64,000 nt of DNA from a virus (Duplodnaviria > Heunggongvirae > Uroviricota > Caudoviricetes), in the IMG/VR virus record IMGVR_UViG_3300036790_000223; one strand, 5' to 3'. Positions 27,941-52,661 of the stretch are shown here, in pieces (position 1 is the stretch's first letter; every line of letters starts with the position of its first letter). The notes beneath the pieces are model-generated. The model had not been told where the DNA came from. It searched no databases and worked only from the letters and a program-made list of their open reading frames with translations. Both the position numbers and the translations under genes were made by a program.

Positions 27941-28272
27941 GGGGCCACCTGGTTGACGTGGGAACCGTGTACGGCTCGGCGGAGGAAGACATGGCTTACG
28001 CAAGGATCGGCTGGGACTCTGATGTCTACGTCTTCTCCGATGGCAAGATGCTGGGCTGCTACGGCTGCTGCCTCCACGGGCAGGCCATCAACGGCTACTT
28101 CGTGGACCACGCTTACCCCGATGCTCCGGTGCTCATGGCAGCGCACCTGACCCACCACCGCGAACATGGCGACAAAGTGCCAGACCACACATTTGAACGA
28201 CTGAGCGAAGAGGCTCTCCACCCCAGACAGGAACAGGAACAGGAAGAATCGGACCATGCCAAACCAGACTGA
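27937..28272 (+). CDS. hypothetical protein
   Basis: 111 aa; ATGA overlap. Confidence 0.45.
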   Translation: MRGHLVDVGTVYGSAEEDMAYARIGWDSDVYVFSDGKMLGCYGCCLHGQAINGYFVDHAYPDAPVLMAAHLTHHREHGDKVPDHTFERLSEEALHPRQEQEQEESDHAKPD

Positions 28273-29437: not shown

Positions 29438-30507
29438 CCCCGAACGTGACCTTCCGGCGGCGCATGCTGATCGCTGCCATGGCGGCCTTCGCGGTGGTGA
29501 TGATCGGCGTGGCTGCGGCGGTAACGAGTGCGGTGATCTCACAGCGCCCGGCCCCGCTGCCCGCTGCGCACGCACTGGCCAGCTACTCCCGGGTGCCCAT
29601 GCACTACATCGCGCACGCTCCGGCTGACGCGGTGCCGGTGCTGGTCTACCACGAGATGAACAACGGCTGCGCTGCCACCGCACCCACCTGCAAGACCGCC
29701 AAGGACTACGAGACGGTCTCCACGGCGCAGTTCCGGGCTGAGATGGCCTGGATGTATGCCCACGGGTACCACACCGTCACCGTGAGCCAGTACCTGGCCT
29801 GGGTGGCTAACCGGGATACCCCGCTGCCCACCCGTCCGTTCCTGATCACGGTGGACAACGGGATTGCAAACTTCCTGGAGGGCGCACAGCCCATCTTGTG
29901 GCACTACCGCTACACCGCGACGGCGTTCTTGGTCACCGGGTTTGCCGATGCGGCCTCAGGCCAGTGCGCACCGCACATCATGGGCGTGAACGTCCAGCCT
30001 GGCTGCCCCGTATCCAGCAGTTACTGGGATGCAACCTGGCAGCAGCTGGAGGCCCTGAGCCCGGCGGTGTATAACTTCGGCATCGAGGCCGGGGCATCGG
30101 GCCACTACGTGCAGAACTACAACCACCACTGCCCGGCCTTCAACGCTTGCCTGCTGCCGGGTGAGACCTTCGCCCACTATGTGGCACGGGTCAAGCACGA
30201 GTATGCCGCTGGCATGGAGCAGATCCGCTCGCACCTGGGGAACCGCTTTGACCCGGGAGCCTGGGTGGTGCCGTACTCCGATCTCGGCTACCCCTGCCGC
30301 CCGGTTAGCTGCGCACTGGAAGCACACAACGACCATGGCTGGCTGATGGGGTTCGCGGCCCGGTGGTTCAAGGTCGCCTTTGTGCAGGACGCCTACCGCA
30401 ACGGCATCCGCCACGAGCGTTACCGCTACGAGGTGCATGCCACCACCACCTTGCGCGCATTCCGCGCAGCCCTTAACCGAGAAATGGGGGCCTTCAGATG
30501 GGCGTAA
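29434..30507 (+). CDS. polysaccharide deacetylase-like (CE4/NodB-type) with N-terminal TM anchor
   Basis: VLVYHEMNN, FLITVDNGIANFLE resembling TFDDG; His-rich; ATGA-coupled to the GT2. Confidence 0.6.
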   Translation: MTPNVTFRRRMLIAAMAAFAVVMIGVAAAVTSAVISQRPAPLPAAHALASYSRVPMHYIAHAPADAVPVLVYHEMNNGCAATAPTCKTAKDYETVSTAQFRAEMAWMYAHGYHTVTVSQYLAWVANRDTPLPTRPFLITVDNGIANFLEGAQPILWHYRYTATAFLVTGFADAASGQCAPHIMGVNVQPGCPVSSSYWDATWQQLEALSPAVYNFGIEAGASGHYVQNYNHHCPAFNACLLPGETFAHYVARVKHEYAAGMEQIRSHLGNRFDPGAWVVPYSDLGYPCRPVSCALEAHNDHGWLMGFAARWFKVAFVQDAYRNGIRHERYRYEVHATTTLRAFRAALNREMGAFRWA

Positions 30508-30691
30508 TCGAATGCGCACGCATCTTTCTGTACGCAACCACGATCCTGACGTTCGCCCTGGCGCTGACGACGATGCCCCGGCCGCGTGCACTCCGCAAGA
30601 GAAGTCGGTAGGGCGCCGCAAGGCCCTGGGCCTGTTGTTCGGGGCGGCGGCTAGTACACTGCTCGCGTCAGACACGAGAGGATTGGATTGC

Positions 30692-31498
30692 ATGGCAGCA
30701 CGTACCCGTACGGCGGCTGGCACCGCAGCAGCCGCAGCCACCCAGCCCGTTTGCAGCTGGGGGTCGCCCGCATCCACGCACCAGCCCCCGGCGGTCACTC
30801 CTCCGCCTGCCCCACCGTCTACCACGTTCACGTTCTTTGACGAGTTCAACGGTGCAGCCGGTTCACTGCCCGACGCCACTAAGTGGCTCTGGGATACCGG
30901 CCCCGGCCAGACCGTAGGCGGCAACAACGAGACCGAGGTCTACGTCAAGTCGGCCGCCAACTCCTACCTGGACGGCAACGGCCACCTGGTGATCGCGGCT
31001 ACGGCCTCAGGCACCACGCTCAACTCCGCCCGGATGAAGAGCAACTTCCATCAGCTGTTCGGCCACTGGGAGGCCAGCATCGCGGTCCCCAACGTGCCGG
31101 GCTGCTGGCCCGCGTTCTGGTTCCTGGGTCAGGGATCGTGGCCGGGCAGTGGCGAGATCGACGTGATGGAGAACTACGGCACCGGCTTCACCGAGGGCAC
31201 GATCTGGAACAGCACCGCCAGCGCCAGTAAGAGTGGCCGGGCGTCGAACCAGATGGACGGCGGGTTCCACACCTACCGGATGGACTGGGCGAAGGGGTCG
31301 GTGCAGTTGTTCTTCGACGGCACCCTCTACGCCTCAGCCACCTCCAGCAGCCTGACCCCGTGGCCGTTTGACACCAACGGGGGCAGCTACTGCCTGCTGA
31401 ACATCGCCACCAACGGCACCGGTACCGGCGGAGTGAGCCCGAATAAGGCTCTGCTGCCCGCGAAGATGCTGGTTGATTACGTGCACTGCTGGACGTAG
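30692..31498 (+). CDS. GH16-family beta-glucanase-like protein
   Basis: GSGEIDVMENYG catalytic motif (ExDxxE); start uncertain (ORF opens at 30380). Confidence 0.75.
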   Translation: MAARTRTAAGTAAAAATQPVCSWGSPASTHQPPAVTPPPAPPSTTFTFFDEFNGAAGSLPDATKWLWDTGPGQTVGGNNETEVYVKSAANSYLDGNGHLVIAATASGTTLNSARMKSNFHQLFGHWEASIAVPNVPGCWPAFWFLGQGSWPGSGEIDVMENYGTGFTEGTIWNSTASASKSGRASNQMDGGFHTYRMDWAKGSVQLFFDGTLYASATSSSLTPWPFDTNGGSYCLLNIATNGTGTGGVSPNKALLPAKMLVDYVHCWT

Positions 31499-31507
31499 AG
31501 AAAAGCG

Positions 31508-31553
31508 CCGCATAGCTTACCGCACTGCATCCCCTGCGCGGTAAGCTATGCGG
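31508..31553 (+). terminator. hairpin with 16-bp perfect arms after GH16 gene
   Basis: CCGCATAGCTTACCGC ... GCGGTAAGCTATGCGG. Confidence 0.45.
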
Positions 31554-31606
31554 GTAGGACCCCCGCCATAGGGGGAAGGAAGGGAATCAAGGGAAAGGAA
31601 GCAGGA

Positions 31607-32506
31607 ATGGTTTGGTTCGTTATTGCGATCATCCTCGCCGTGGTGGCTATCTGCGCCCTGATCTACGGGCTCGCTGCGGACGAGAAGGCCGGTGGCATTG
31701 CGCTGGCGGTCCTGTGTGGCGTCCTGGCGTTCGGGGTGTTCCTCATTTCCATTTCACGCGAGGTGCCTACCCGCTCTGTGGGTGTGCCGACCGCGTTTGG
31801 CAAGGTGGAGCCCCCGCTGCGTCCTGGTGTGCACTTTGGGGTGGCCCCGTGGACGAAGGTGAACATCCTGGATGAGACCATCCAGACCACCACGTTCGAG
31901 GGTAAGGACTGCCTGGACGTGCGCATCGGTGGCCAGCAGACCGCCTGCCTGGACGCAACCATTCAGTGGCGCGTGCTGGATTCAGGTGCCTCCGGCCTGT
32001 TCAACGACTACAACGGTGATGGCCCCTCGATCATGAGTGCCATCACCGACGCTGTGGTCATCCGGGAGCTGAAGCAGACCGTCAACAACGTTCTGGGGGA
32101 CTACAACCCCATCCAGGACGTAGCGGCCAACGCCACAGCAGGCAACAGCCAGTTCTCCACCTTTGGTCCTGTGGTCCTGCGCGACATGCGCACGGACCTG
32201 ACGGGCCGGGTGCAGGTGCTGAATGTGCTGATGCCATTGCTGCGCTACGACAACGCCACCCAGCAGCGGCTGAACCAGATTCAGCAGCAGTACGGGGAGA
32301 CGGCCATCGCCAAGCAGCAGATCATCACCAACGAGGCGCAGAACGAGGCCAACTCCAAGATCTCGGCCTCGCTGTCGCATGATCCGGGAGTGCTGCAGTA
32401 CCAGTGCCTGCAGATCGCCCAGACCGCCATCAAGGCTGGGGACAGTTCGGTGCAGCCGGGCTGGTGCTTCGGCTCCTCCGGTGTGATCGCCAACACCGGC
32501 AAGTAG
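31607..32506 (+). CDS. SPFH/band-7 (prohibitin/HflK-like) membrane protein
   Basis: N-terminal TM then SPFH core and coiled-coil tail; 299 aa. Confidence 0.75.
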   Translation: MVWFVIAIILAVVAICALIYGLAADEKAGGIALAVLCGVLAFGVFLISISREVPTRSVGVPTAFGKVEPPLRPGVHFGVAPWTKVNILDETIQTTTFEGKDCLDVRIGGQQTACLDATIQWRVLDSGASGLFNDYNGDGPSIMSAITDAVVIRELKQTVNNVLGDYNPIQDVAANATAGNSQFSTFGPVVLRDMRTDLTGRVQVLNVLMPLLRYDNATQQRLNQIQQQYGETAIAKQQIITNEAQNEANSKISASLSHDPGVLQYQCLQIAQTAIKAGDSSVQPGWCFGSSGVIANTGK

Positions 32507-32607
32507 GGCGCCACAAAGACCGCTCAGGGGGGTGGCTGGTGATCTGGAATAGGGGGGCGCCAGCCACCTCCATGAGCGTAGGATAAGGAAAAGGAAGGGA
32601 AATTGAG

Positions 32608-34029
32608 TTGAACGCCGCAGAGATCATCGCGGCCATGGGCGAGTTCGTCCCGCCAGGCCGCATCCAGCTGGACCCGTCGCAGCAGGCAGGCTTGCTGGCC
32701 TACACCGCTGACCTGTGTGATGCCAGCCCGAACGCCGAAAGTGAACGCCAGCGTTACCGCAGCGTGATCAGCCGCCAGATCCCCATGGACGAGGTCATGC
32801 TGCGGCACTGGCTGGCCGGTAAGACCATCCTGGTCACCGGGGGCACCGGCTGCATCGGTTCGGCGCTGGTGGGCCAGCTGACCCGCTATGGCGCCGCCCG
32901 GATCGTCAGCGTGAGCCGGGGGCTGACTAGCTGCTGGACCCGCTACAGCTCGGTGGATTACCTGAATGCCGACGTGCGTGACAGCAGCGGGTTGCTGCAG
33001 GTCTTCCGGAAGGTCCAGCCCGACATTGTGTTTCACCTGGCGGCTCAGCGTGAACCCGGTCTGGCCGAGCGTGAGGTGCACCGCACCGTGAGCACCAACG
33101 TGCTCGGTACGGCCAACGTGGCCGACCTGGCCGACTACTTTGGGGTGGCTGAGCTGATCCATGCCTCCACCGGCAAGGCGGTGCGCCCCTACTCCCGTGA
33201 GGTCTACACCGCGTCTAAGCGGGTAGCTGAGTGGGTCCTGGCGCAGACCGCAGCACGGTCGGAGGTGGCCATCGCCGCTGCCCGGTTCACCCACGTGGTA
33301 GACAACGCCGTGGTCTACCGCAACATCCAGCGCGCCGCTGCGGACAACACCACGCTGCGCATTCACGACCCGGGTATCGCCTTCTACGTGCAGTCCGCGC
33401 TGGAGAGCGCTCAGCTGCTGCTGCGGGCGGGGCTCGGGGCTATGTCCGGTGCGCTGAGCATCCTGGCCATCACCGACCTTGGCTGGCCGGTGAGCCTGCT
33501 GGATCTCACGCTCGGCACGCTGACCCACATGGGCACTGCGGCCCCGGTCTACTTCAGCGGGTACGACGCCGGGTATGAGGCGGTGCCGTTCCCGGGCCTG
33601 TATGACCCGCGCACCGCCGGAGACGTCAGTCCGCTGCTGAACTGCTTTGAGGCGCTGACCGTTGCTGAGTACGCCGGAGTGGACACCGCGCTGGCCCGCT
33701 ATGCAGCCTCATCAACGGAGGCAGGGGAGGCCGCCCTGCAGGAGCTGAGGGAGCTGTGTGCCGACACCGAAGACGGCCATGACCTGCGGGTCGGGCTCGA
33801 TATGCTGTTGTGGATAACCCTGGGGGCCACGCTGCGTGCAGCGCCGGAGCGGGCACTGCGGCGCGTGGAGGCCATCGCTGCACCGTTCAAGCAGACCATG
33901 AGCCGGGACTGCCGCCGGATTCTGTCGGCAGTGGAGTACTACGCGCAGAACGGAGAAGGGCGCGGTGCAGGGGCAGCAGGAGTTCACGTGGGCAGTTCCG
34001 TCGATGGAGCGGCTCGTCATCCCTACTGA
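32608..34029 (+). CDS. CapD-like NAD-dependent sugar epimerase/dehydratase (extended SDR)
   Basis: ILVTGGTGCIGSAL Rossmann motif; YTASK catalytic YxxxK; 473 aa. Confidence 0.75.
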   Translation: MNAAEIIAAMGEFVPPGRIQLDPSQQAGLLAYTADLCDASPNAESERQRYRSVISRQIPMDEVMLRHWLAGKTILVTGGTGCIGSALVGQLTRYGAARIVSVSRGLTSCWTRYSSVDYLNADVRDSSGLLQVFRKVQPDIVFHLAAQREPGLAEREVHRTVSTNVLGTANVADLADYFGVAELIHASTGKAVRPYSREVYTASKRVAEWVLAQTAARSEVAIAAARFTHVVDNAVVYRNIQRAAADNTTLRIHDPGIAFYVQSALESAQLLLRAGLGAMSGALSILAITDLGWPVSLLDLTLGTLTHMGTAAPVYFSGYDAGYEAVPFPGLYDPRTAGDVSPLLNCFEALTVAEYAGVDTALARYAASSTEAGEAALQELRELCADTEDGHDLRVGLDMLLWITLGATLRAAPERALRRVEAIAAPFKQTMSRDCRRILSAVEYYAQNGEGRGAGAAGVHVGSSVDGAARHPY

Positions 34030-36485: not shown

Positions 36486-36578
36486 GACGAGGCAGCGCGC
36501 AGCGCACCGATACCCCTCGGCCCCCGCCTGCGCGCTGCCTCCCCCTTCCCTGAGGTGCGGCGAGGTATATTACCCCCC

Positions 36579-37232
36579 ATGGCAGACAGTTTCCATGCCC
36601 GGCTGGAGATAGCTGCGGCGGAGTTGGCAGAGCTGCTGCTGGAGTTGGAGACCGTGCTGCCGTACCGGCCGCGAGCCGGGTACCGACCCGCCGGAGCCTC
36701 AGGGAGCCAGGGCAAACCTGGTTCGGGCATGACCAGCTGGAACCCTATCGTCGCTATGGTGATCATGGACGTACACGCCGGAGCCCGTGAGCTGGAGCAG
36801 AACCTGCGCTACCGCAGCTCGGGTGTCCTGCGTACCCGAGGTGGCAGCGACGGCAACACCCACGCGGCCCTGGGTGCCATCGTGTCGCTGGCGGCGGGAG
36901 CCGGTGACGCCGAGCTGCGTGATGCCAGCCGCCAGGTACAGCGCTGGGTCTGGCGGGCACGGCTGGCCCTCGGTGAGCTAGAGCCCTGGGTCCACGTACC
37001 CCGCCTGCCGGGCCGTCCGGTGGCCCGCTGCCCCTACTGCAGCTATCAGACCCTGAGGATGAAGGCCATGTCTGGCCTGCTGCGGTGCATCAACCCGGGC
37101 TGCGCCGACGCCGATGGCCACCGGCCCCAGGGGCGCGTCATCGTTGGCCCGGCCTTTGGGGAGCCCATCCTCGCCTGGTCAGACGACACGATGGGCCTGG
37201 TATCAGAACAGGAAACGGAAGGAATCGCGTGA
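36579..37232 (+). CDS. hypothetical protein with Zn-ribbon (CPYC..C..C)
   Basis: 217 aa. Confidence 0.45.
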   Translation: MADSFHARLEIAAAELAELLLELETVLPYRPRAGYRPAGASGSQGKPGSGMTSWNPIVAMVIMDVHAGARELEQNLRYRSSGVLRTRGGSDGNTHAALGAIVSLAAGAGDAELRDASRQVQRWVWRARLALGELEPWVHVPRLPGRPVARCPYCSYQTLRMKAMSGLLRCINPGCADADGHRPQGRVIVGPAFGEPILAWSDDTMGLVSEQETEGIA

Positions 37233-37509: not shown

Positions 37510-37844
37510 CCAAAGACCAGATGGACAACATGCAGCTCGATGTGGCTAAATCGGCCATCATGCTGGACGAGAAGCTGCCCGGCTGGTATCGCCGGGTCAA
37601 GCTGACCACCCTGGAGATGACCAGCTGCATTACCTGCGTTCTGGGTCAGCTCAGCCCGGATACCATCCCGAACCCGTACACCTACATGCTCAGGCAGCTG
37701 GAACTGGACGAAAGCGGAGGTCGTGATTACGCCTTTGACCTGCCAACCGAACTGCAACTGAACACCCGTAGCTGGCACCAGCTCGGCGCCTACTGGAAGG
37801 CCGAGATCCGCCAGCGCAGGAGGTTTGACAATGAGCAAGCATGA
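37506..37844 (+). CDS. hypothetical protein
   Basis: 112-aa ORF. Confidence 0.5.
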   Translation: MTKDQMDNMQLDVAKSAIMLDEKLPGWYRRVKLTTLEMTSCITCVLGQLSPDTIPNPYTYMLRQLELDESGGRDYAFDLPTELQLNTRSWHQLGAYWKAEIRQRRRFDNEQA

Positions 37845-38193
37845 CATCGCCATCGGGCTGCTGGTCATCGCGGGCATCCTGGGGTTCTGGACCCTGACCG
37901 CCATCGCGCTCGGCAACCGGCGTCAGCGCACCGAGGCTGATAACGTGCGCAGCTACGGCCGCGAGCCCGACGAGAACTGGGCACGTGACCTGAAGACCGA
38001 GATGAACGAGTTCCCGGTGCTTCCGGAGTTCCAGCGCCGCGACACCGCGCCCCTGCCCGTCTTCCGGGACAGCGAAGATTCCGCTGACTGGGCAGAGACC
38101 CTGCTGATGGACTTCCGGCGGCAGATCGCACCGCTAGCCCATGAGATGTCTAACCTGCGGCGCGAGCTGGTCTACGCGCCCATCCCGGACTGA
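37831..38193 (+). CDS. membrane protein (single N-terminal TM)
   Basis: AGGAGG RBS 8 nt upstream of ATG; MSKHDIAIGLLVIAGILGFWTLTAIAL. Confidence 0.5.
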   Translation: MSKHDIAIGLLVIAGILGFWTLTAIALGNRRQRTEADNVRSYGREPDENWARDLKTEMNEFPVLPEFQRRDTAPLPVFRDSEDSADWAETLLMDFRRQIAPLAHEMSNLRRELVYAPIPD

Positions 38194-38195: not shown

Positions 38196-38498
38196 ATGAA
38201 CCTGGAATCGGTGGCGGAGCGGCTGCAGTTCTCGTCTGGACCGGCGGTCACCTTCACGGCTCGGGGTGGTTCCATGACCCCGCTGGTGACCGATGGCCAG
38301 GAGGTCAGCGTCTACCCCATGCCACGCCCGGAGTTCCTGGTGCCGGGTGATGTGGTGGTGGCTCGCGTGGAAGGTCGGGTGTACCTGCACAAGGTGCTCG
38401 CTGTCGATCAGGGGCGCCACCGGGTGCAGATCGGTAACAACCACGGCCGGGTCAACGGCTGGACCGGATTCGCCAAGGTCTACGGGGTGATGCGCTGA
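38196..38498 (+). CDS. hypothetical protein
   Basis: 100-aa ORF. Confidence 0.5.
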   Translation: MNLESVAERLQFSSGPAVTFTARGGSMTPLVTDGQEVSVYPMPRPEFLVPGDVVVARVEGRVYLHKVLAVDQGRHRVQIGNNHGRVNGWTGFAKVYGVMR

Positions 38499-38741
38499 CC
38501 ACGTTCCCCCTGTACACAGCAGGTTTTTACGGTATATAGTATTGAGACCAGGAGAAGTGTGCCCTGGCTCAGGCCCAGCGCCTCATGCGCGTGGAGCGGC
38601 TATCCCTGCTGATTACTCGCGGTAGCTTCAGCGCAGCCCAGACCCCGTTGCGCTGGTTCCACGTGCGTGCCTGCCCGAACGCTAAGCAGGAGACGGCGAC
38701 GAACAGCCCCTAGGGGCTGGCCCGAGAAAGCGACCTTCACC

Positions 38742-39491
38742 GTGCTCAAGACACGGACCATCCCTGCAGCCCTGGGTGGGCTGCTGGCAGCTACGGCGGG
38801 TGTTCTGCTTGCCTGGCCATCTTCCGCTGCCAATTCCGCAATCCCTGCCGCTGCTGCGGCATCCCGCTCGCAGATTGTTTGGCCTGCGGCTCCCCGGCGT
38901 GCTCTCCGCCGTCCTGCACGGCTGGTGGTTACCCGCGTGAGCGAGGTCCAAACCAAGGCGGGAGATTCCCTCTCAGCCCTCTCAGCGCGCTACCTGGGCA
39001 GTGCAAAGGACTGGCCTGCGCTGTACATGGCGAATGCCAAGGTGATCGGCCCCGACCCGGCCGCCTTGCCCAAGGGGATCACGCTGCGCATCCCGGTGCA
39101 CGTCGGGAGGTGGCTGGCTGCCTGGAAGGCGCATGAGGCCGCAGTGTTCAAGGCTGCGGCACCTGCCCCTGATCCGGCTCCGGCCGCTCCGGCTCCGGCT
39201 CCAGCCCCGGCGCAGCTGACTGCCCGGGTACTGAGTGCAGCCCAGATCGGGCAGCTGTGGCTCTCAGCGGGCGGATCGGCCGGTACTGAGCAGACCGCCA
39301 TCTGCATTGCGGAGCACGAGTCGAGCGGCAACACCCAGGCCGTCAGCCCGAGCGACGACTTCGGGGTGTGGCAGATCCACGCCGACCCGGCAGCGCTCAA
39401 CCCCATGGTGAACGCCAAGACGGCAGTGCAGATGTCGGACGACGGCACCAACTGGAGTGCCTGGACAACCGCAGGGGACTGCGGGGTGTAG
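38742..39491 (+). CDS. secreted LysM + Rpf-like lytic transglycosylase
   Basis: Signal peptide; LysM (KAGDSLSALSARYLG..ITLRIPV); Ala/Pro linker; transglycosylase core AICIAEHESSGN..GVWQI..WSAWTT. Confidence 0.75.
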   Translation: MLKTRTIPAALGGLLAATAGVLLAWPSSAANSAIPAAAAASRSQIVWPAAPRRALRRPARLVVTRVSEVQTKAGDSLSALSARYLGSAKDWPALYMANAKVIGPDPAALPKGITLRIPVHVGRWLAAWKAHEAAVFKAAAPAPDPAPAAPAPAPAPAQLTARVLSAAQIGQLWLSAGGSAGTEQTAICIAEHESSGNTQAVSPSDDFGVWQIHADPAALNPMVNAKTAVQMSDDGTNWSAWTTAGDCGV

Positions 39492-39556
39492 GTTTTCTAC
39501 AAGGCAGAAAGGGCCACTGGGTAACCGGTGGCCCTTTCTCATGCCCGGAGGCGGCA

Positions 39557-39865
39557 GTGTGGTTCACCCTGTTGCACTTGTTTGGCGTTGAGCCCCGCAA
39601 CACCTCCACCGCCTACAACTTCTGGTCAGGAATTGGCTCTGACCTGGGCGAGCTGGGCATCATTACTGGCCTGGTGACGGTGTACCGTAAGCACAACTGC
39701 CACGTGTACCGCTGCTGGCGGGTGGGCAAGATGGCAGTGCCCGGCACGCCGTACGTGGTGTGTCACCGTCACCACCCGGCGGTTGACGCCCCGATCACCA
39801 GCCAGGTCGTGCTGGACGCCCACGAAGTAGCAAGGGAGCAGGCCGATGGAGCAGAGTTCGCGTGA
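39557..39865 (+). CDS. hypothetical Cys/His-rich protein
   Basis: KHNCHVYRCWRVGK...VVCHRHHP. Confidence 0.4.
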   Translation: MWFTLLHLFGVEPRNTSTAYNFWSGIGSDLGELGIITGLVTVYRKHNCHVYRCWRVGKMAVPGTPYVVCHRHHPAVDAPITSQVVLDAHEVAREQADGAEFA

Positions 39866-40131: not shown

Positions 40132-40458
40132 TTGACCACTCCAGCCCCGCCCGCCGCACTTCAGCTCACCGACAACCAGCAGGTCACCCTGTCGGTTGAG
40201 GCTGAAGACAGCAAGGGCAATGAGGTAGCCGACACGTTCACCTGGACGGTGGACAACGGCGACGTGATCGTGCTGACGGTGTCGGACGACACCATGAGCG
40301 CGCTGTGTGTGGCTGGTGCCGTGGGCGCCGCCAACGTCACCGTGACCGACTCCTCGGCTACGCCGCTGTCCGCTACTCAGAGCTTCACCGTGACCGCTGG
40401 CGAGGCCAGCCAGCTGGTGATCACTCCGGGTGCCATTGAGGCACAGCCGACTGCCTGA
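40132..40458 (+). CDS. Ig-like (Big_2-type) domain protein, virion-associated candidate
   Basis: TTG start; beta-rich VTLSVEAED..VTVTD..SFTVTAGEASQLVITPG. Confidence 0.6.
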   Translation: MTTPAPPAALQLTDNQQVTLSVEAEDSKGNEVADTFTWTVDNGDVIVLTVSDDTMSALCVAGAVGAANVTVTDSSATPLSATQSFTVTAGEASQLVITPGAIEAQPTA

Positions 40459-40545
40459 TCTACCCAGCACCACCAAAAGCCCAGTCCCATCCCGGGACTG
40501 GGCTTTTGTTATCAGTTGATCCCTTCACCAACCCGGGAGTAAGAC

Positions 40546-41034
40546 ATGGCCCTCGGCCGCACCTACAGCTCGACAACCGCACTGGTGGCCTACACTGCTA
40601 CGTCGGCCACCCCGATCATGTGGGGGGCAACCACCTCCAGCTCCACCATGGACATCCAGGCCATCCGCGTGGCCTCCTACGCCGGTTCTGGGGTGTCTTA
40701 CCCGTCCAACGGCACCGTGCTGGTGCAGCTCTCGCGGGTGACCGGTACCGCTGCTGGTGGCACGGCACTGACCCCGAGCCCGCACAACCCAGGCGACATC
40801 GCGGCAGTGTCCACCTGGAAGGACGCCTCCACTGCTGCGGTCACCTCCCTGACTCAGGGTGTGACGCTCTGGGAGCAGGCACTGCCGTTCACCGCAGGCG
40901 CGAACTGGGCCGAGTGGGTGACCCCGGGTGCTGAGTGGCGCGTCGGTGCGACCGGTACCATCGCGGTCTACCTGACTGCCAGCTCCGCAGGCACGGCTAC
41001 CGACTTCGAGGCGTCCATCGTGTTTGTTGAGTAA
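40546..41034 (+). CDS. probable tail-associated protein
   Basis: T/S/A/G-rich 162 aa. Confidence 0.5.
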   Translation: MALGRTYSSTTALVAYTATSATPIMWGATTSSSTMDIQAIRVASYAGSGVSYPSNGTVLVQLSRVTGTAAGGTALTPSPHNPGDIAAVSTWKDASTAAVTSLTQGVTLWEQALPFTAGANWAEWVTPGAEWRVGATGTIAVYLTASSAGTATDFEASIVFVE

Positions 41035-41727
41035 GTGGCGTCGCTCACCGTCACCGCCACCAGCGTCGGACCCAACACCCACGCGGGGATGTACCTGCTG
41101 GTGCGGGTGTTCACCGGGGCTACCGAAAGCGGAGGGGCGACCGCCTCCGGTACCCCGGTGGGCTCGACCGGCACCGTCAGCCTGACCCCCAACGGCACCA
41201 ACTCGCTGGTCTTTGCGTCGGTGTGCAGCGGGCTGGTCGCCGGTTCGTTCTCCGCCGCATCCAACAACACCACCTACTTCAACGTTAACGACGGCACCAA
41301 CACCGCCACCGCTAACTGGGCACACTTCACCGGGGCCGTCACCTCCGGTACCCCGGTTGCGGTCGGGGCTACGCTGGCGGGGTCGTCCACCATCGCCAAC
41401 GGTGCCTACGAGATCCTGTCCACTACCGGGTCTACGCCTTCGCTGGCTACGTCGCCCACCGGGGCTCAGTCCCCGTCCACCAACACCGTCACCTCAGCGT
41501 CGTTCACGGCTGTGCCCGGGGCGGTGCTGTGCGTGGGCGTGGGGTGCACGTCCCCGTCAGGCACTGGGGTGTCGTCGTTCACGGTGAGCGACAGCCTGGG
41601 TGTGGTCTGGACGTCACGGGTGTTCCAGACCGGGTCACCCGATGCCGCCGTGGGGGTCTTCACCGCCACCGTTCCGCCACCCCCGCCAGCGCCGACAACC
41701 TTGTACCAGATGCGGTCCTTCGGGTAA
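41035..41727 (+). CDS. probable minor tail protein
   Basis: T/S/G-rich 230 aa. Confidence 0.5.
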   Translation: MASLTVTATSVGPNTHAGMYLLVRVFTGATESGGATASGTPVGSTGTVSLTPNGTNSLVFASVCSGLVAGSFSAASNNTTYFNVNDGTNTATANWAHFTGAVTSGTPVAVGATLAGSSTIANGAYEILSTTGSTPSLATSPTGAQSPSTNTVTSASFTAVPGAVLCVGVGCTSPSGTGVSSFTVSDSLGVVWTSRVFQTGSPDAAVGVFTATVPPPPPAPTTLYQMRSFG

Positions 41728-41741
41728 AAAGGAGTTCCACT

Positions 41742-42386
41742 TTGACCCTTCCGGCCTTCGGCATTCAGATGCAACAGCAACCTGACTACCCCCTCACGCT
41801 GGACGGGGACGTGGTGAATGCCGCTCCCGCTTTCCAGGCTCCTGACGGTTACGGAATCTTGTGTTACACCTGGAGCGCCTTCTACGACAACGGATTCTTG
41901 CCTATGTCGCCGGGTGAAGGGCAACTCCAGTTCACTGGAGGCGCTAACCCGCCACAGGACCGGGCAGAAGGCCCCTACCCTTCCAAGCTGACCCTCAACT
42001 TCTGGGGACCCACCCCAGGTGACTTCAGCTACGGTTCACTTCGCGTGTGGCTCTACTTCGTCCCCGCTCAGGCGCTGGAAACGACGCCCTCTGTGGCTAA
42101 CTTCACTGCCGGGGCAACTAACGCCATCACTTTCGACTCCGACTCAGCTACCAACTCAGCGGCAGTCCACACCCTCGCAGACGGAAGCAACCTGACCAGC
42201 GTCACTCCGCTTCCCACGCTCAGCGTGGTCGAGACGCTGGCGTCGGGCGTCACCTTCACGGACAACGAAGACGGTACTGCCACGTTGGCCGGAGACATGC
42301 CAGCGGCGGGGAACTACTCGCTTACCATCCAGTCAATCAACAGCGTGGGCGAGGTGGATCAGGCGCTCACGCTCACCATTACCTGA
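41742..42386 (+). CDS. probable minor tail protein
   Basis: TTG after AAAAGGAG RBS; 214 aa. Confidence 0.5.
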   Translation: MTLPAFGIQMQQQPDYPLTLDGDVVNAAPAFQAPDGYGILCYTWSAFYDNGFLPMSPGEGQLQFTGGANPPQDRAEGPYPSKLTLNFWGPTPGDFSYGSLRVWLYFVPAQALETTPSVANFTAGATNAITFDSDSATNSAAVHTLADGSNLTSVTPLPTLSVVETLASGVTFTDNEDGTATLAGDMPAAGNYSLTIQSINSVGEVDQALTLTIT

Positions 42387-42433
42387 CTGACTCCCCTCTT
42401 CCGGGAGGTCCCCGGTTACAGGAGGCAGGTTAC

Positions 42434-45400
42434 GTGACCGTCTCCTCCAACGGCACCCCGACTGTCATCGCCGGTATCACTGGCTCAGCAAGCATCAGCG
42501 TCACTGGCCAGTGGCCGACCAACCCGACTGCCCCGGCCGCTGGAGACCTGCTGGTGGCGGTCATCGGCGGGTACGGCACCACTAGCTGCACCGTCCCTAC
42601 AGCTCCGTCTGGGTGGACGCTGTGGAACTGGTGCTACGGCATCACCGCCGGGACCGGCGCCAGGTCCCTGACCACCGTTACCGCCTACTACATCAAGAAC
42701 TCCACCGGGTCCGACACGGTCCCGACGTTTAGCGCCACAACGGCGGGCACTGCAGCCGACAACGGCCTGCGCTGCGTCATCTACGACCTGTCCGACTCCG
42801 GCGGTAGCACCCCGGTTCTGTGGACGGACGGCATCACCGCACTGCCGGTTGCCGGGACTGCGACCGTGTTCACTGGTCCGGTCCCCGCTGGTTCGCTCGG
42901 GATCGCCTCGGCCACGATCTCCCAGGGCACCACTGCAGCCACGAACACGTGGACCACGCCGTCCGGCTTCACCGCAGCCACCGGTAACGAAACCGCGTCG
43001 CTGCGGTCCCAGTTCGGCTCGTTCTATACCTCTTCCGCACCGACCACCGGCAACGGCATGTCTGTGGCCATCGTGCACTCCCGGACTTCCACCGAGCAGC
43101 CCGCGATTGCGCTGGTGGCGGCACCGCCGTCCTCTTCGGGGGTCAGGCGGTTTCAGGCGTCGCCGTACCAGGCACCCACCACCGCCGCTGCAGTGCTCAC
43201 CAGCCATACGTTCGCCGCACAGCCCGACGAGCTGATCGTCGCCTCGGCAGGCGTAGGCAATGGCGTTGGCACCGCGCCGACCAGCCTGGTTGCCGTCGAC
43301 AACACCAGCGCCACCCTGACGGCGCTGGTCACCGAGCTAGCTGGCGCCGACTTCGGCCTGGCGGGGGTCTTCGCCGAAGACGCAGGTGCCACCCCGGCTG
43401 TGACGTCGGTCACGGTTACCGCCGCCCCGTCCACGGTGCACGACCCGTGCCTGGTGGTATACCGGTTCGCCGGGGCGGCGGTAACTGCAGACCAGACCGG
43501 CACCACCGCCCACGGCACCACTGCCACTTTGTCGATTACCCCGGCCCAGACCGGCTCGGTGATCGTCGGTGCGTCCGGTGACGACGGCTCCACGGCACTG
43601 ACCCCGAACGCCAGCAGCCTCGGCTACACCTCCACCACTGGTGGCGCCGGGGACCGCATCAACGCCTACATGGGCCTGGCCTACACCACGGCCTCCAGTG
43701 CGGTCACGGTCGGCTGGTCTACCGCTCCTACCGCGCTCGGCAATGCAGCGGCGGAGATCATCCCCGCTCCTCCCGCAGCTAACCCGGCACCGCTGTACCC
43801 ATTGCGGAGGCCGGTCCGGGCGCAGGCTTTGCCCCGGCGGGGCGGCCGGGTCTACCGGAGCGGTCTGCCTAACCGGATTCTCACCAACAACTTTGAGGGT
43901 GGGTCCTCCGGCACCACCATCACCACCACTAACTCCAACGGGATTAGTGGCGCTGCGTTCGACGTGGTGTCCATCGGCACCAGCGCCACCCTGGCGTTCG
44001 ACAACACTGAGGCTGCGCACGGCCTGCTGTCGATGAAGGTGGCCACGGGCGGCACCTCCACCACGTCCCTGGCTGAGTGGACCTTCTCCGAAGGTCCCCA
44101 GCTGACGATCTACTTCCGGCTGTACCTGTTCCTGTCCGCCACACCGACAGCGGCCATCAGCCCGTTCATGGTCCGCTCCGGCGCGTCTGTGGCAGCCTCG
44201 CTGCTGCTGACCACGCCGGGCACCCTCCAGCTGCGCGACGGCACCAACACCACCCAGGTGACCTTCACCACCCACCCGCCAACTGGGTCCTGGTACCGGA
44301 TCGAGGGTTACGTCACTGGTGCCAGTGGCACTGGTGGCGCGATCTCGGCCAGCCTGTACTCGCCGCTGGACTCGCTGACCCCGGTTGAGACCCACACCGT
44401 CACCGGGATCAACACCACCGGGGCGATCAGCGCCTACTGGTTCGGCCAGGCCAACACCGTCGCCAGCAGTGGTCCGTTCTGGATCGACGACATCGGGATC
44501 TCCCCGGTCGGGTTCCTCGGCCCGGCGGCGTTCCCGCCCGTCACCTCCGGGCCACCGCTGACCGCACTGGACGGTCCGGTCCGCGCACCTGTCCCGGCCC
44601 GCCGTAAGGGTGGCATCGCACGGGCCATGAGCCCGCTGGCGATCTCCTACGCCGGGCCACCGCTGACCGCACTGGCCAGCCCGGTCCAGGGACGCCGCAG
44701 GCCCACCCCACGCGGCCGGGTCTATGGCATCAGCCGCCCCGCAGTCACCGTCGCGCCACCGACCCCAGCGCCGCTGTACCCACTGAGCAAGCCGGTCCGT
44801 GCGGTCATCCCAGCCCGCACCCGGGGTGGCCGGGTCTACCAGACGACAGCCCCTACGGTCCCCGCCATCCAGACCGGCGCAGCGCCGTGGTACCTGTTCC
44901 CCACGTTCCCGCAGTGGACGGTGCTGGAGTCGTCTACCGGGCTGCTGCCTGCCGTAGCCATCATGAACAACGGCAACGGCGACGTTGTCTGGGATTCGAC
45001 CTGGGGTGCTCTCGCTACTGCCCTGCATGCCAAGGGCATCAAGCTCCTCGGTTACGTCTACACGCAGTTCGGCACCCGGCCCGAGGGTGACGTTGAGACC
45101 GCCATCGGCAACTACCTCCAGCCTGGGTTCACCCCTGGCCTGGACACCGTTGACGGTATCTTCTTTGACCAGTTCAACAACCTGACCGGCAGCGAGTCCT
45201 ACTACAACGACCTCTGCATCTCGGTCAAGAGCCAGTTCGAGGCGGTCGGCTCCGGCGCGAACAGCCCTCTGATCTGGGGCAACCCGGGCACGGCTATCGC
45301 TGCGTCCTACCTGACGCTGCCCATCGACGTGTTTGTCACGTTCGAGGGTCCGATCACCGCCTACCAGAACTTCACCCCGTTCAACGTCAACGCCTCGGGG

Positions 45401-47068
45401 TTCATCTCTGGCGCTGGGCAATGGCCCCGGCAGCGGTTCGCGCACATCGTCTTCGAGGTCGTTCGCGACCAGGTGGACGGGGTCGTAGACCGGGCCTGGC
45501 TCAACTACGCCGGTTGGGTCTACACCACCAACGGACCCGGCGACACCAACCCGTACGCCTTCATCCCCGGCAACGACTACCTGAACGACCTGGTAGCCCG
45601 GGGAGCCAGCGAGCCTCCGCTGCTGCCGCAGGGCATCCCGCCCTGGATCTACCCGCAGACCTCACCGGTCAGCGCACCGAAGCAGCGCCCCGCCCGGGGT
45701 GGGCGCGTCTACAGCCGCAGCGGTTCTCACGGTGGACTCGGCCCGGCCCTCACCGCATTGCGCGGCCCGGTTGCAGCTGCCCGGCGCAAGCTGCCACCCC
45801 GGGGCAGGGTCTACTCGGCCCGGGGCACGTTCTCCGGCAGCGGACCCGTGCTCAAGGCGCTGGCCAAGCCGCTGGCTGCCGCCCTGCGCATCCTGCCGCC
45901 GCAGGGGCGGGCACTGTCTCGCCGGGGTTTGCTCAGCGGCACTGGAGCGGTTCTCAAGGCGCTAAGTGCCCCGGTCCGTGCCCGGCCTAAGCTGCCACCC
46001 CGTGGGCAGGTAACCTCCCGGGCGGGCATCCCGTTCACCGGGTTCGGCCCGCCGCTCACCCTGCTGCGCTCCCCGGTCAAAGCAGCGCCGAAGCTCCCAC
46101 CACGGGGCAGGTCCGCAGCGAACACCGGCACGTTCGGTGGTCAGGGTGCAGCGGTCTACCCGATCCACCAGCCGGTCTCGGTTCACCATCCGCTGCCGCC
46201 ACGTGGACGCGTCTACAGCAACCCCGGTGGCCCGGTTGTTGCTCCGCCGCCACCGGGGTTCGGTCCTGCGCTCACGCCGCTGCACATGCCGGTGCGTGCC
46301 AGCTGGCCTAAGCAGGTCAGTGGTGGCACTGGCCATGGACTGCGCGGTACCCGCAATGGCGTTGGCCCGGCGCTCTACCCGCTGCACCTGCCGGTCAAGG
46401 CGGCACCGAAGCTACCACCCCGGGGCCGGGTCTACCTGCTGCCGGTGCGGGCGGTGCAGAGCCCAGCGGCACCTCCGCTGCATGTTCCAGTCCGGGCGGC
46501 CTGGCCTCAGCGCATCAGCGGTGGCACTGCTCACGGCTTGCGAGGCTTCCGTGGCGGCGCAGGACCAGCACTGGTTCCGCTGCGCACCCCGGTCAAGGCT
46601 GTTCCTAAGCTGCCGCCACGTGGCCGGATCTTCCAGTTCCTGACTCGGGCGTTCCAGTCACCACCGGTTCCTCCGCTGCATGCTCCAGTGCGGGCAGCAC
46701 CGCACAAGGCACCTGCCCGGGGCCGGATCATCACCAGCGCCGTGCGGCTGGTCCCGTTCATTCCCACGTCGGGACCGGCACTCACCCCGCTGCGGATGCC
46801 AGTCCGTGCCCGGCCGAAGCTCCCGCCGCGAGGCTGGTGCTACACCACCCCGCCGTACGTGGCACCGGGTCCGCCATCGGGTCACGCCACCGGCTGGAGC
46901 GTGGGCACCCCGCAGTCTGCCTGGATCACTGGCCTGCTGCAGGGTGCCTGGGAAAGCGGCCTGCCCGCTAGCCCCATTGCCTGGAACCCGAGCGGCCCGC
47001 AGGCCGCATGGCAGAGTGGCCCGCTGACTTCTGCCTGGGAAAACGTGTCGCCAATGACCGGAGGGTGA
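42434..47068 (+). CDS. giant tail fibre / receptor-binding protein (1544 aa) with central glycosidase-like domain and C-terminal Arg-rich modular repeats
   Basis: Long T/S/G/A-rich N-part; central W/aromatic-rich domain (IDVFVTFEG, GIFFDQF); ~20 copies of P-V-R-A-x-P-K-L-P-P-R-G-R-V-Y. Confidence 0.8.
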   Translation: MTVSSNGTPTVIAGITGSASISVTGQWPTNPTAPAAGDLLVAVIGGYGTTSCTVPTAPSGWTLWNWCYGITAGTGARSLTTVTAYYIKNSTGSDTVPTFSATTAGTAADNGLRCVIYDLSDSGGSTPVLWTDGITALPVAGTATVFTGPVPAGSLGIASATISQGTTAATNTWTTPSGFTAATGNETASLRSQFGSFYTSSAPTTGNGMSVAIVHSRTSTEQPAIALVAAPPSSSGVRRFQASPYQAPTTAAAVLTSHTFAAQPDELIVASAGVGNGVGTAPTSLVAVDNTSATLTALVTELAGADFGLAGVFAEDAGATPAVTSVTVTAAPSTVHDPCLVVYRFAGAAVTADQTGTTAHGTTATLSITPAQTGSVIVGASGDDGSTALTPNASSLGYTSTTGGAGDRINAYMGLAYTTASSAVTVGWSTAPTALGNAAAEIIPAPPAANPAPLYPLRRPVRAQALPRRGGRVYRSGLPNRILTNNFEGGSSGTTITTTNSNGISGAAFDVVSIGTSATLAFDNTEAAHGLLSMKVATGGTSTTSLAEWTFSEGPQLTIYFRLYLFLSATPTAAISPFMVRSGASVAASLLLTTPGTLQLRDGTNTTQVTFTTHPPTGSWYRIEGYVTGASGTGGAISASLYSPLDSLTPVETHTVTGINTTGAISAYWFGQANTVASSGPFWIDDIGISPVGFLGPAAFPPVTSGPPLTALDGPVRAPVPARRKGGIARAMSPLAISYAGPPLTALASPVQGRRRPTPRGRVYGISRPAVTVAPPTPAPLYPLSKPVRAVIPARTRGGRVYQTTAPTVPAIQTGAAPWYLFPTFPQWTVLESSTGLLPAVAIMNNGNGDVVWDSTWGALATALHAKGIKLLGYVYTQFGTRPEGDVETAIGNYLQPGFTPGLDTVDGIFFDQFNNLTGSESYYNDLCISVKSQFEAVGSGANSPLIWGNPGTAIAASYLTLPIDVFVTFEGPITAYQNFTPFNVNASGFISGAGQWPRQRFAHIVFEVVRDQVDGVVDRAWLNYAGWVYTTNGPGDTNPYAFIPGNDYLNDLVARGASEPPLLPQGIPPWIYPQTSPVSAPKQRPARGGRVYSRSGSHGGLGPALTALRGPVAAARRKLPPRGRVYSARGTFSGSGPVLKALAKPLAAALRILPPQGRALSRRGLLSGTGAVLKALSAPVRARPKLPPRGQVTSRAGIPFTGFGPPLTLLRSPVKAAPKLPPRGRSAANTGTFGGQGAAVYPIHQPVSVHHPLPPRGRVYSNPGGPVVAPPPPGFGPALTPLHMPVRASWPKQVSGGTGHGLRGTRNGVGPALYPLHLPVKAAPKLPPRGRVYLLPVRAVQSPAAPPLHVPVRAAWPQRISGGTAHGLRGFRGGAGPALVPLRTPVKAVPKLPPRGRIFQFLTRAFQSPPVPPLHAPVRAAPHKAPARGRIITSAVRLVPFIPTSGPALTPLRMPVRARPKLPPRGWCYTTPPYVAPGPPSGHATGWSVGTPQSAWITGLLQGAWESGLPASPIAWNPSGPQAAWQSGPLTSAWENVSPMTGG
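45650..46900 (+). repeat. intragenic array of ~26-34-aa modules (GPALTxLxxPVRAxPKLPPRGRVY)
   Basis: At least 14 consecutive modules here; further copies near 43790, 44560-44830. Confidence 0.7.
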
Positions 47069-47069
47069 G

Positions 47070-47387
47070 ATGCCTGCAGACCTGACCCTGCCGTCGCTGA
47101 CCACCCAGCTGGTCCAGGTCCCCATCCAGGTCACCTTTGAAGGTGCCCCGTATGACCCCACCGCTGACGTGGTGGCCTTCGCCTTCGTGAACGGCAACGC
47201 CTACCCGGCGACCTGGTACACCGGCAGCTGGCAGACCACAGTCCAGGGCAACTACCTCGCTCAGTGCCTGATCGGGCCGGTGGGCGGGGTGGTCGCCCTG
47301 GCTCCGGCGACCTACACCGTCTGGGTCAAGATCACCGACGACCCCGAGGTGCCCGTCCTGTCCACCGGAAGCCTGCAGATCACATGA
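47070..47387 (+). CDS. hypothetical tail-associated protein
   Basis: 105-aa ORF right after fibre gene. Confidence 0.5.
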   Translation: MPADLTLPSLTTQLVQVPIQVTFEGAPYDPTADVVAFAFVNGNAYPATWYTGSWQTTVQGNYLAQCLIGPVGGVVALAPATYTVWVKITDDPEVPVLSTGSLQIT

Positions 47388-47398
47388 CGGAGACCTAG

Positions 47399-48040
47399 AT
47401 GGCGCTGCCGGTTGACCTGACCACCATCGAGGTGACGGGCTCCTTTGACGACGCCTCCGGCGCAGCGCAATCTGGTGCGGTGCTGTTCACCCCGACCACC
47501 CCGCTGGTCGACTCCACGGGCCAGGTCGTCGTGACGCAGACCGCCATGACCCGAGCCGTAACCAGCGGCACCATGGCCGCGATCACCCTGGCCACCACCG
47601 ACAACGCCAACCTGTTCCCGCAGAGCGCCGGATCGAGCTGGGCCTACACCGTCACCATTGCGGTGCCTGGTGCGATGGCTACGTTTGACACCTACCTGCC
47701 GTCTGGCTACGGCTCCACGGTGGACTTGACCCAGCTGATCCCGGCGGCTACCCCACCTGCGCTGAGCGGCCCCTACGTCCAGTCCATCAACGGCATGAGC
47801 GGCACGGTGGTGCTCGCTGGCACCATCCTCGCGTCGGGGACGGCTACCTTGATCAGCCCGGGCACCGTCATCATCACCGACATTGCCATCCCTGCCAGCG
47901 CGATCCCCTACGCCATCGCCAGCACGGTGCACGGCACGCAGGGCATCTTGTCCGCTACGGCCTCGGCTGGTTCGATCACGGTCACCTCGTCAAACTCCGG
48001 CGACACCTCCGCTATCTACTGGGCGGCTTTCGCCGCCTGA
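47399..48040 (+). CDS. hypothetical tail-associated protein
   Basis: A/T/S/G-rich 213 aa. Confidence 0.5.
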   Translation: MALPVDLTTIEVTGSFDDASGAAQSGAVLFTPTTPLVDSTGQVVVTQTAMTRAVTSGTMAAITLATTDNANLFPQSAGSSWAYTVTIAVPGAMATFDTYLPSGYGSTVDLTQLIPAATPPALSGPYVQSINGMSGTVVLAGTILASGTATLISPGTVIITDIAIPASAIPYAIASTVHGTQGILSATASAGSITVTSSNSGDTSAIYWAAFAA

Positions 48041-48052
48041 GAGGAACCACCC

Positions 48053-48331
48053 ATGCTGGCGATGTACCAGGTGGTATCCGGCACCACGGCTACGATGGTG
48101 GGCGTGGTGCCTCCGGGGGGCGCTGCGGTCTTTCAGCCACCGCCGAGCGGAAGCTCAGCGGTGGCCATCGGCGTAGGCACCCTGGTGACCACCACCAACG
48201 GGTTCCCGCTGTACGCGGGGGGTGCTCCGGTCTTCATCAACATGCCAATCACCTCCGCACCAGCGACGATCTATGCCATCTCGACATCAACCACAGCGGC
48301 CATCGGGGTGGCGTTCATCAACGGTTCGTAG
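48053..48331 (+). CDS. hypothetical protein
   Basis: 92-aa G/A/V-rich ORF. Confidence 0.45.
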   Translation: MLAMYQVVSGTTATMVGVVPPGGAAVFQPPPSGSSAVAIGVGTLVTTTNGFPLYAGGAPVFINMPITSAPATIYAISTSTTAAIGVAFINGS

Positions 48332-52523: not shown

Positions 52524-52661
52524 ATGGCGGAAAAGGTAAAGGAAACGTGCACCCGGTGCGAGGGGATGGGCATTCTCCAGAAGCCCGGTAGCAAGAAGAT
52601 TGTCCCGTGCCCTAAGTGCAGTGGCATGGGTTACCGGTGGGTTCCCCGTCGTGGGTTGTGA
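52524..52661 (+). CDS. DnaJ-type CxxCxGxG zinc-finger minigene (paralog 3)
   Basis: MAEKVKETCTRCEGMGILQKPGSKKIVPCPKCSGMGYRWV; below ORF-track cutoff. Confidence 0.45.
   Translation: MAEKVKETCTRCEGMGILQKPGSKKIVPCPKCSGMGYRWVPRRGL

Follow-up and report, generated by a model that had tools for sequence, protein, structure and literature searches.

A stretch of DNA of 64,000 nt from the IMG/VR virus record IMGVR_UViG_3300036790_000223 (Caudoviricetes), called here the window, comes from a divergent high-GC phage (about 65% G+C) and carries at 38742..39491 (+) a gene whose product is very probably an exported muralytic enzyme with a LysM module and a catalytic domain of the Pfam family SLT_3. The open reading frame (ORF) starts with GTG at 38742, ends with a TAG stop at 39489-39491, and codes for 249 aa; the coordinates in a preliminary description of this DNA agree with it exactly. 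The product is predicted to be a lysozyme-like peptidoglycan glycosidase. The chances of the whole reading, in which an exported and LysM-anchored glycosidase helps lysis by weakening the wall on the outer side of the membrane, are about even. The gene is phage-encoded, as had been described, with a Terminase_6 large terminase (TerL, identified by Pfam) at 59479-61023, a portal of 923 aa that starts about 8 kb past the terminase and beyond the window end (precomputed annotation), and 26-27 tRNA genes.

The catalytic domain lies at aa 161-249 (39222..39488, +) and was modelled by AlphaFold2 with pLDDT of 94-98. Pfam SLT_3 (PF18896) matched aa 175-243 with 35.3 bits against a cut-off of 27, and with 38.5 bits when the domain was taken in isolation; Pfam SLT matched with 24.7 bits (cut-off 21.3). 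The c-type lysozyme profile PF00062 (Lys) reached 13.2 bits, which is below its cut-off of 27, and the profile of resuscitation-promoting factors (Rpf), PF06737, gave no match at E<=1. In a Pfam census of 46 diverse domains of the family, SLT_3 was recognized in all 46 and SLT in 45, c-type lysozyme in 12 (weak matches), and PF06737 in four, also weakly, with the best E-value 6.7e-4. When the family profile was run against all PDB sequences, Musca lysozymes came first (E-values 7e-6 and 1e-5), in an alignment that spans almost the entire domain and brings Glu, Asp, and both Cys into register; human lysozymes and MltE followed, and no Rpf chain was among the 60 best matches listed. Similarity to the c-type lysozyme fold was found, and the Rpf fold was not the closest structural neighbour of the protein. 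These independent lines agree on a lysozyme-superfamily domain whose nearest relatives appear to be the c-type lysozymes and the family-1 lytic transglycosylases rather than Rpf.

Aligned by hhalign to hen lysozyme, Cys188 (39303-39305, +), Glu193 (39318-39320, +), Asp206 (39357-39359, +), and Gln211 correspond to C30, E35, D52, and Q57, respectively. Glu193 is the putative catalytic residue, Asp206 stands at the position of lysozyme Asp52, Gln211 is a further key residue of the domain, and Cys188 is the putative disulfide partner of Cys247 (39480-39482, +). Among 244 unique domains of the family, Glu193, Gly208, and Gln211 are present in all and Ser194 in 243; the position of Asp206 is occupied by Asp in 211 and by Glu in 22 (233/244 acidic, 95.5%). 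The two Cys co-occur in about 44% of these domains. Invariant or near-invariant motifs of the family are W-x3-GG...(C)IA-x-x-ES-GG-N...S-P-T-D-D-x-G-L-W-Q-I...W-S-x-W-T-T. By alignment, Glu193 and Asp206 form an acid pair of lysozyme type, and a hydrolytic lysozyme mechanism appears at least as likely as transglycosylase chemistry. An SLT-like G-A-S-G in the region of Asp206 is found only in the most divergent SLT_3 members.

In the preliminary description, the domain had been read as an Rpf-type transglycosylase. The profile searches do not bear out membership in the Rpf family, and since that assignment is unsupported, the label transglycosylase is unproven. As judged from sequence comparison, the protein belongs to SLT_3, and its likeness to Rpf is real only at the level of superfamily and architecture. 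Protein P0036, a LysM protein with PF06737 from the homologue list, was aligned by hhalign with 91% probability over the catalytic core. Glu193 falls on the Glu of its HESGGN motif, and the catalytic Glu is in this way present as had been expected, but P0036 has His at the position of Asp206. The core motif, quoted earlier as AIAEHESSGN, is present as CIAEHESSGN...FGVWQI, with the first letter trivially misread. The proposed resemblance to actinobacterial Rpf proteins holds for the architecture of signal, LysM, linker, and small lysozyme-superfamily domain and for the closest relatives being chromosomal, but not for the family.

The LysM-fold peptidoglycan-binding module (aa 66-118; 38937..39095, +) is predicted from its fold. 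In the AlphaFold2 model it has the beta-alpha-alpha-beta arrangement of LysM with pLDDT >90 and resembles solved LysM domains. Although the Pfam LysM model PF01476 gave no match to the protein at E<=1, it is present in aligned full-length homologues, and the LysM module recognized earlier is retained. Weak LysM-type matches were obtained with Phage_tail_X (0.025) and NCBIfam LysM/Kbp (0.0016), and phrog_380, labelled endolysin, matched aa 66-124 at 2.7e-8 by its LysM part. A long helix (aa 121-139) follows the module. The flexible Ala/Pro linker was also described correctly; it is rich in Pro and Ala, spans about aa 140-160 (39159..39221, +), has low pLDDT, and varies in length among homologues.

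The first 28 aa (38742..38825, +) are predicted to be a signal peptide or signal-anchor. Lys3 and Arg5 in the n-region are followed by IPAALGGLLAATAGVLLAW and then by PSSAANSA. The h-region (aa 7-25) has 19 residues, is rich in Gly, Ala, and Leu, and peaks at a Kyte-Doolittle hydropathy of 2.02 over 15 residues. This layout of n-, h-, and c-regions, with small residues in the polar c-region, was recognized by inspection and hydropathy behind a start codon without a Shine-Dalgarno (SD) sequence. Starting at residue 1, homologue P0052 (257 aa) is collinear with the protein and shares its charged n-region, hydrophobic core, and Pro-Ser break. An N-terminal hydrophobic segment is present in 119/181 family members (those with enough upstream sequence) and is kept in 14 of the 23 phage loci surveyed. 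The 249-aa form is favoured because of P0052 and the 119 members with such a segment, and position 38742 was accepted as the probable translation start. Export of the protein is likely. The earlier term secreted is thus backed by the signal layout and by the collinearity with P0052; the lack of a good SD sequence and a shorter public gene call speak against it. This JGI call (protein P0001) is 154 aa long, starts from Met96 (39027-39491 of the window), omits the signal, and splits the LysM fold in half. The case is a lesson for annotation, as the public call truncates the protein and conceals both the signal and the LysM module.

The family is well beyond a chance match: with cut-offs of E<=1e-3 and E<=1e-10, the homologue search returned 1,667 and 301 cluster representatives, respectively, and many family representatives span the full query length. 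The profile of the catalytic domain found 996 proteins at E<=1e-5. The SLT_3 domain is C-terminal in 176 of 181 members. A scan of species-representative genomes gave 74 loci from actinomycetes, with one bin labelled Alphaproteobacteria; among them are Trebonia kvetii, metagenome-assembled genomes (MAGs) of Trebonia and Streptosporangiaceae, and many uncultured soil Actinomycetes. The cellular homologues lie on contigs up to 1.7 Mb long, often with several paralogues per genome, and chromosomal relatives reach 44% identity over the LysM module and catalytic domain. The 74 cellular loci share no other gene with the window and are therefore not related prophages. By these comparisons, the closest relatives appear to be chromosomal genes of Streptosporangiales-type actinomycetes; we infer that the phage host belongs to this clade and that the gene is of host type. 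A full-text literature search for PF18896/SLT_3 found no relevant experimental work. In a MAG of uncultured Actinomycetes (locus L032), a tRNA gene at 5236-5325 lies about 700 bp upstream of the chromosomal homologue and could mark an integrated element.

In the proposed mechanism, the infected cell would export the glycosidase by the Sec pathway by means of the N-terminal signal or signal-anchor, and the LysM module would hold the enzyme on glycan strands. The C-terminal SLT_3 domain would cut the MurNAc-GlcNAc backbone in the manner of c-type lysozymes, Glu193 serving as the general acid and Asp206 as the other carboxylate. A disulfide between Cys188 and Cys247 would be expected to form only after export from the cytoplasm. 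The wall, weakened or degraded from the outer face of the membrane, would give way to lysis and release. The gene is a phage-borne copy of a family that is multi-copy on chromosomes of Streptosporangiales-type actinomycetes, and its product would be an exported endolysin, of signal-peptide or signal-arrest-release (SAR) type, or an accessory lysin, and not a cytoplasmic LysA released by a holin. Lysis, virion entry, and host modulation, the roles proposed in the preliminary description, are still the right candidates; lysis or wall weakening is ranked first, modulation of host physiology second, and a virion-associated role last.

The role in lysis is suggested by relatives in other phages, which pair the glycosidase with an endopeptidase beside holin-like genes. 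Relatives of the gene were found on 22 IMG/VR viral contigs. The closest full-length relative in the first homologue search, P0002 (46% identity), is coded in loci L108/L109, and a separate NlpC/P60 gene (1285-1755, +, in L108) with its own textbook Sec signal (MKRQWITALIAALFAALSPLTGATLAHA, then S) follows 3 bp after it. In L108/L109, a late operon, which codes for a 744-aa tail-type protein and a Phage_holin_2-like protein, ends convergently against this pair; no recognizable lysin was found in this late operon. A convergent layout with small transmembrane (TM) proteins nearby is also seen in L002, L009, L013, L014, and L025. True SLT_3-NlpC/P60 fusions are represented by L007 (9527-10711) and P0008; apparent fusions in L017 (574 aa) and L020 (381 aa) were out-of-frame artefacts of longest-ORF calling and were discarded. 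Export signals are retained in phage copies, and a virion or cytoplasmic role is disfavoured for this reason. In the phage itself, a Pfam scan covered the smaller neighbours of the gene and the plausible ORFs of 95 aa or more, apart from the four left of 5 kb; it turned up no second muralytic domain, and neither did the precomputed annotation of about 9 kb beyond TerL. The same role is favoured by the short signal-less forms coded two genes downstream of a 3-TM protein in L024, by the place of the homologue directly before TerL in the related phage L008, and by a single-TM protein of 122 aa coded two genes upstream of the enzyme.

Only one phage, L008, is clearly related to that of the window, with a TerL 39% identical and three shared genes (g36555, w10612, and w62712). 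The gene order in L008 is a g36555-like gene, an NlpC/P60-like peptidase, the homologue of the enzyme, and TerL. In the window, the protein coded at 36555-37232 (+) is 225 aa long and has a zinc-ribbon-like CxxC...CxxxxC motif; its copy in L008 (7937-8590) is 34-35% identical. The position before a muralytic gene and TerL suggests a regulatory protein.

The gene appears as an insulated unit. Upstream of it, a weak hairpin with a T-run (38509..38540, +; only -7.9 kcal/mol, z -1.5) overlaps a match to a sigma-70-like promoter (TGTACA/TACACA, 16-18 nt, TATAGT). Two overlapping promoter-like matches were found in 6.5 kb against 0.5 expected, which is weak evidence. This promoter-like element does not recur in the rest of the window, and the idea of a regulon that would link the gene to a transcriptional class was dropped. 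The untranslated leader of about 200 nt (38541..38741, +) has a fold z-score of -2.5. Within it, some 22 nt ahead of the start codon, CAGCCCCTAGGGGCTG (38704-38719) forms a perfect palindrome of 16 nt, and sequences that differ from it by 2-3 mismatches are near 62470, 1451, and 49296. A ydaO/c-di-AMP riboswitch often precedes rpf and other genes for wall hydrolases. No Rfam family, ydaO included, matched the leader at E<=10, the whole window gave nothing but tRNAs, and no ydaO riboswitch was found upstream of 11 cellular homologues; this idea was also rejected. A strong stem-loop with a 14-bp perfect core stem (39503..39545, +; -33.7 kcal/mol, z -6.1) begins 12 nt past the stop codon, and none of 200 shuffled sequences was as stable. 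It is a probable intrinsic terminator or RNA 3'-end stabilizer that closes the transcription unit. Since a new unit begins beyond it, the gene would be the last of a unit that borders a receptor-binding/depolymerase cluster.

Several observations weigh against export and a role in lysis. The role was read solely from gene context, and the tail region, where lysis cassettes of actinophages usually lie, is outside the sequence seen. A canonical lysis cassette could be located elsewhere, because the sequence available, with a 2.4-kb contig on the left, amounts to no more than about 62% of a putative 117-kb genome. An NlpC/P60 partner was not found in this phage, and insulation by a promoter-like site and a strong hairpin suits a moron or early gene equally. 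In 113 cultured Streptomyces phages, small NlpC/P60-like proteins of phrog_1128 are coded in accessory regions that are early or rich in tRNA genes, and PHROGs files them as moron/auxiliary. Neighbours of homologues in high-GC viral contigs have no PHROGs label of holin or endolysin, and with the partner peptidase in accessory regions, a lysis-cassette reading of contigs L015-L022 is no more than suggestive. At the gene itself, no candidate start has a good SD sequence, GTG 38742 included, and in-frame GTGs at codons 62 (38925) and 66 (38937) would yield a protein without signal. In the domain, SLT-type motifs E-S...G-x-x-Q are also present and are compatible with lytic-transglycosylase chemistry. 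Copies of phrog_1128 are found in Streptomyces phages Wakanda (gp103), BillNye, and Muntaha, and in Samy (gp45) (L029, L030). They are labelled enoyl-CoA hydratase/carnithine racemase-like in RefSeq and PHROGs and peptidase or NlpC_P60 amidase in GenBank; the enoyl-CoA hydratase label is probably a mis-annotation.

The gene could instead be an accessory, moron-like gene for remodelling of the envelope or for host physiology, which is a possible though rather unlikely reading. The enzyme would then remodel the hyphal wall, for example in growth-dependent infection, spread across cross-walls, or release of fragments, or it would act like Rpf on neighbouring dormant cells or spores. Consistent with this are the insulated unit between a promoter-like site and a terminator-like hairpin, the host-type family with several chromosomal paralogues per genome, and the location of the gene within 20 kb where genes acting on the envelope abound (GT2, epimerase, SPFH, and a GH135-containing protein). 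The partner peptidase is found outside lysis cassettes in cultured Streptomyces phages, and the gene context of homologues is not conserved among phages. Infection by Rhodococcus phage WC1 induces rpf genes of the host, and its authors suggest phage-driven prevention of dormancy (PMC10986025). The accessory role is opposed by the position of the enzyme outside the Rpf family, the missing ydaO riboswitch, the weakness of the promoter evidence, the finding of no other lysin in about 73 kb, and the pairing with NlpC/P60 beside a holin-like gene in L108. A special form of it is doubtful: the secreted enzyme would act in trans on mycelium, dormant hyphae, or spores as a functional Rpf analogue built on a c-type-lysozyme-like domain, and not in lysis, keeping or making cells growth-active and thereby infectable or opening cross-walls for spread within hyphae, and it might be processed by the S24-like peptidase coded upstream.

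Translation from codon 62 or 66 would give a cytoplasmic, holin-dependent endolysin of LysM, linker, and lysozyme domain, and this is quite improbable. The third codon position has G+C of 0.59 in the first 65 codons and 0.74-0.85 afterwards, so that a strong coding signal begins only from about 38940; JGI also called a shorter protein, and short signal-less members exist in phages L023 and L024, near multi-TM proteins and in L024 two genes downstream of a 3-TM protein. The internal GTGs likewise have no SD sequence, however, and the 61 codons upstream of them encode a well-formed signal over which P0052 and many relatives are collinear. The conserved Cys pair also suggests an extracytoplasmic disulfide.

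A role as virion-associated lysin, breaching the wall as the DNA is injected, is very improbable. The only cultured-phage match to the catalytic domain, with 41.7% identity over 59 aa, is Rhodococcus phage E3 gp119, where the domain lies inside a virion structural protein of 806 aa coded between tape-measure and baseplate genes. The LysM module resembles that of baseplate and tail-tube-initiator proteins, and fibre/depolymerase-like genes begin about 650 bp downstream of the stop codon. The enzyme of the window is nevertheless a small stand-alone protein without a structural-protein domain, its export signal is incompatible with assembly of virions in the cytoplasm, and its gene is separated from the fibre genes by the terminator-like hairpin and is far from the portal and head genes. 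A true Rpf orthologue carried by the phage is hardly credible, as PF06737 did not match, SLT_3 matched the whole census, Asp206 replaces the His of P0036, and profile searches already point to a place of SLT_3 outside the Rpf clade, in spite of the shared superfamily and core motif (C-x-x-x-x-E-S-G-G-N...G-x-x-Q), the hhalign probability to the PF06737 protein, the similar secreted LysM architecture, and the Rpf-like motifs known in tape-measure proteins of mycobacteriophages (PMC1796659).

The same phage or a close variant is present in three datasets. Megablast against 50,697 deposited phages gave no match to the window, and its terminase is at most 42% identical to those of scattered cultured phages, so the layout of lysis genes cannot be taken over by homology. 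The tRNA array (1-10046, -) comprises 26 genes and one more, truncated, at 1-65, with small ORFs scattered between them; most amino acids are represented. Such arrays are typical of large actinophages. Two genes precede the promoter-like site. A 122-aa protein (37825..38193, +) has a strong N-terminal TM segment (aa 8-26, hydrophobicity 2.22) and a highly charged C-terminal part; it had no PHROG or Pfam match and would be holin-like in topology. The next gene (38196..38498, +) codes for a 100-aa S24-like serine peptidase with GGSMTP...HKV (Pfam Peptidase_S24, 25.0 bits, cut-off 23.3), annotated in the same way by JGI. A stand-alone protein of LexA/signal-peptidase fold beside an exported enzyme is a curious pairing. 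Neither of the two has counterparts near homologues elsewhere.

Beyond the stem-loop, the next unit opens with a 102-aa Cys/His-rich protein preceded by GGAGG (39557..39865, +) and continues into Ig-like, fibre-like (rich in Thr, Ser, and Gly), and GH135 (Spherulin4) proteins at 40132-48331 (+). Among these are a 1,544-aa protein with the GH135/Spherulin4 domain at aa 818-1045 and a weak K1-lyase_C-like protein (47399-48040, +). The layout is unusual in that this fibre/depolymerase cluster precedes TerL by about 12 kb and the portal by about 22 kb. On the other side are a membrane GT2 glycosyltransferase (28256-29437, +), a TM protein with no family assigned (29434-30507, +), SPFH/Band7 (31607-32506, +), and a Polysacc_synt_2 epimerase/dehydratase (32608-34029, +), so that envelope and polysaccharide genes flank the enzyme gene at 28256-34029 and 40132-48331. 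A cluster of DNA hypermodification type at 52600-57690 (+) consists of an amino acid:DNA transferase (ADDT; 52600-53721, +), a PLP-dependent enzyme (54277-55125, +), a P-loop nucleotide kinase3 (55865-56452, +), and a Tet/JBP 2OG-Fe dioxygenase (56467-57690, +), with a ParB-like gene ahead of it (51838-52512, +). Pfam matches to Serglycin were artefacts of Gly-Ser linkers joining concatenated ORFs.

If the gene does serve lysis, this phage lineage and its relatives would use Sec-exported hydrolases, often with a secreted NlpC/P60 peptidase, instead of a cytoplasmic LysA, and the concept of signal-peptide and SAR endolysins would extend to filamentous actinomycetes. The compact lysozyme-like Glu/Asp domain of about 90 aa would also be a candidate enzybiotic module. 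The biochemistry of the family, whether hydrolase or lytic transglycosylase, might be reached most easily through a phage-borne SLT_3 member of clear phenotype.

Among known proteins, actinomycete members of Pfam SLT_3 have the same C-terminal domain of about 90 aa, frequently with an N-terminal signal and LysM; the copy described here differs in being phage-borne. With c-type (GH22) lysozymes of Bombyx mori, Musca domestica, and hen egg-white it appears by alignment to share the Glu35/Asp52 pair, but the domain has about 90 aa and not about 125, its beta-region is shortened, and it has one Cys pair in place of four disulfides. It is also of bacterial or phage source, is fused to LysM, and stays below the threshold of PF00062. 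Family-1 lytic transglycosylases (Escherichia coli MltE and Slt70, phage phiKZ gp144, and EtgA) have a single catalytic Glu, to which the enzyme of the window adds a conserved Asp. The Rpf proteins (RpfB and RpfC of Mycobacterium tuberculosis and Rpf of Micrococcus luteus, which joins Rpf to LysM) are, as predicted for it, secreted small lysozyme-superfamily domains with a Glu motif of C-x-ESGGN type. Rpfs partner functionally with the NlpC/P60 endopeptidase RipA, and the SLT_3-NlpC/P60 pairs and fusions recall this partnership. E3 gp119 differs in that its domain is embedded in a tail protein, lacks a signal, and does not occur there as a separate protein.

Exported endolysins are a known class, with Lys44 of Oenococcus phage fOg44 (signal peptide) and Lyz of P1 and R of phage 21 (SAR) as examples. 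They reach the wall without a canonical holin pore, and a holin or pinholin only triggers their activity. Cytoplasmic modular LysA dominates in known actinophages, and compared with it the earlier words not a canonical endolysin are fair. To our knowledge, endolysins of signal-peptide or SAR type are not established in actinomycete phages. The enzyme of the window differs from the exported endolysins in its catalytic family and its probable actinomycete host, and no holin was identified beside it. It shares with them the phage-encoded and, as predicted here, muralytic nature and a putative Sec signal or Gly/Ala-rich signal-anchor. In passages of a survey of 250 Streptomyces-phage endolysins (PMC11705968), no SLT_3 or signal-bearing type is mentioned. 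Altogether the enzyme is of a rather common type among the cell-wall enzymes of phages, though unusually packaged, and by analogy its deployment would resemble that of fOg44 Lys44 and the SAR endolysins more closely than that of the cytoplasmic modular LysA of actinophages.

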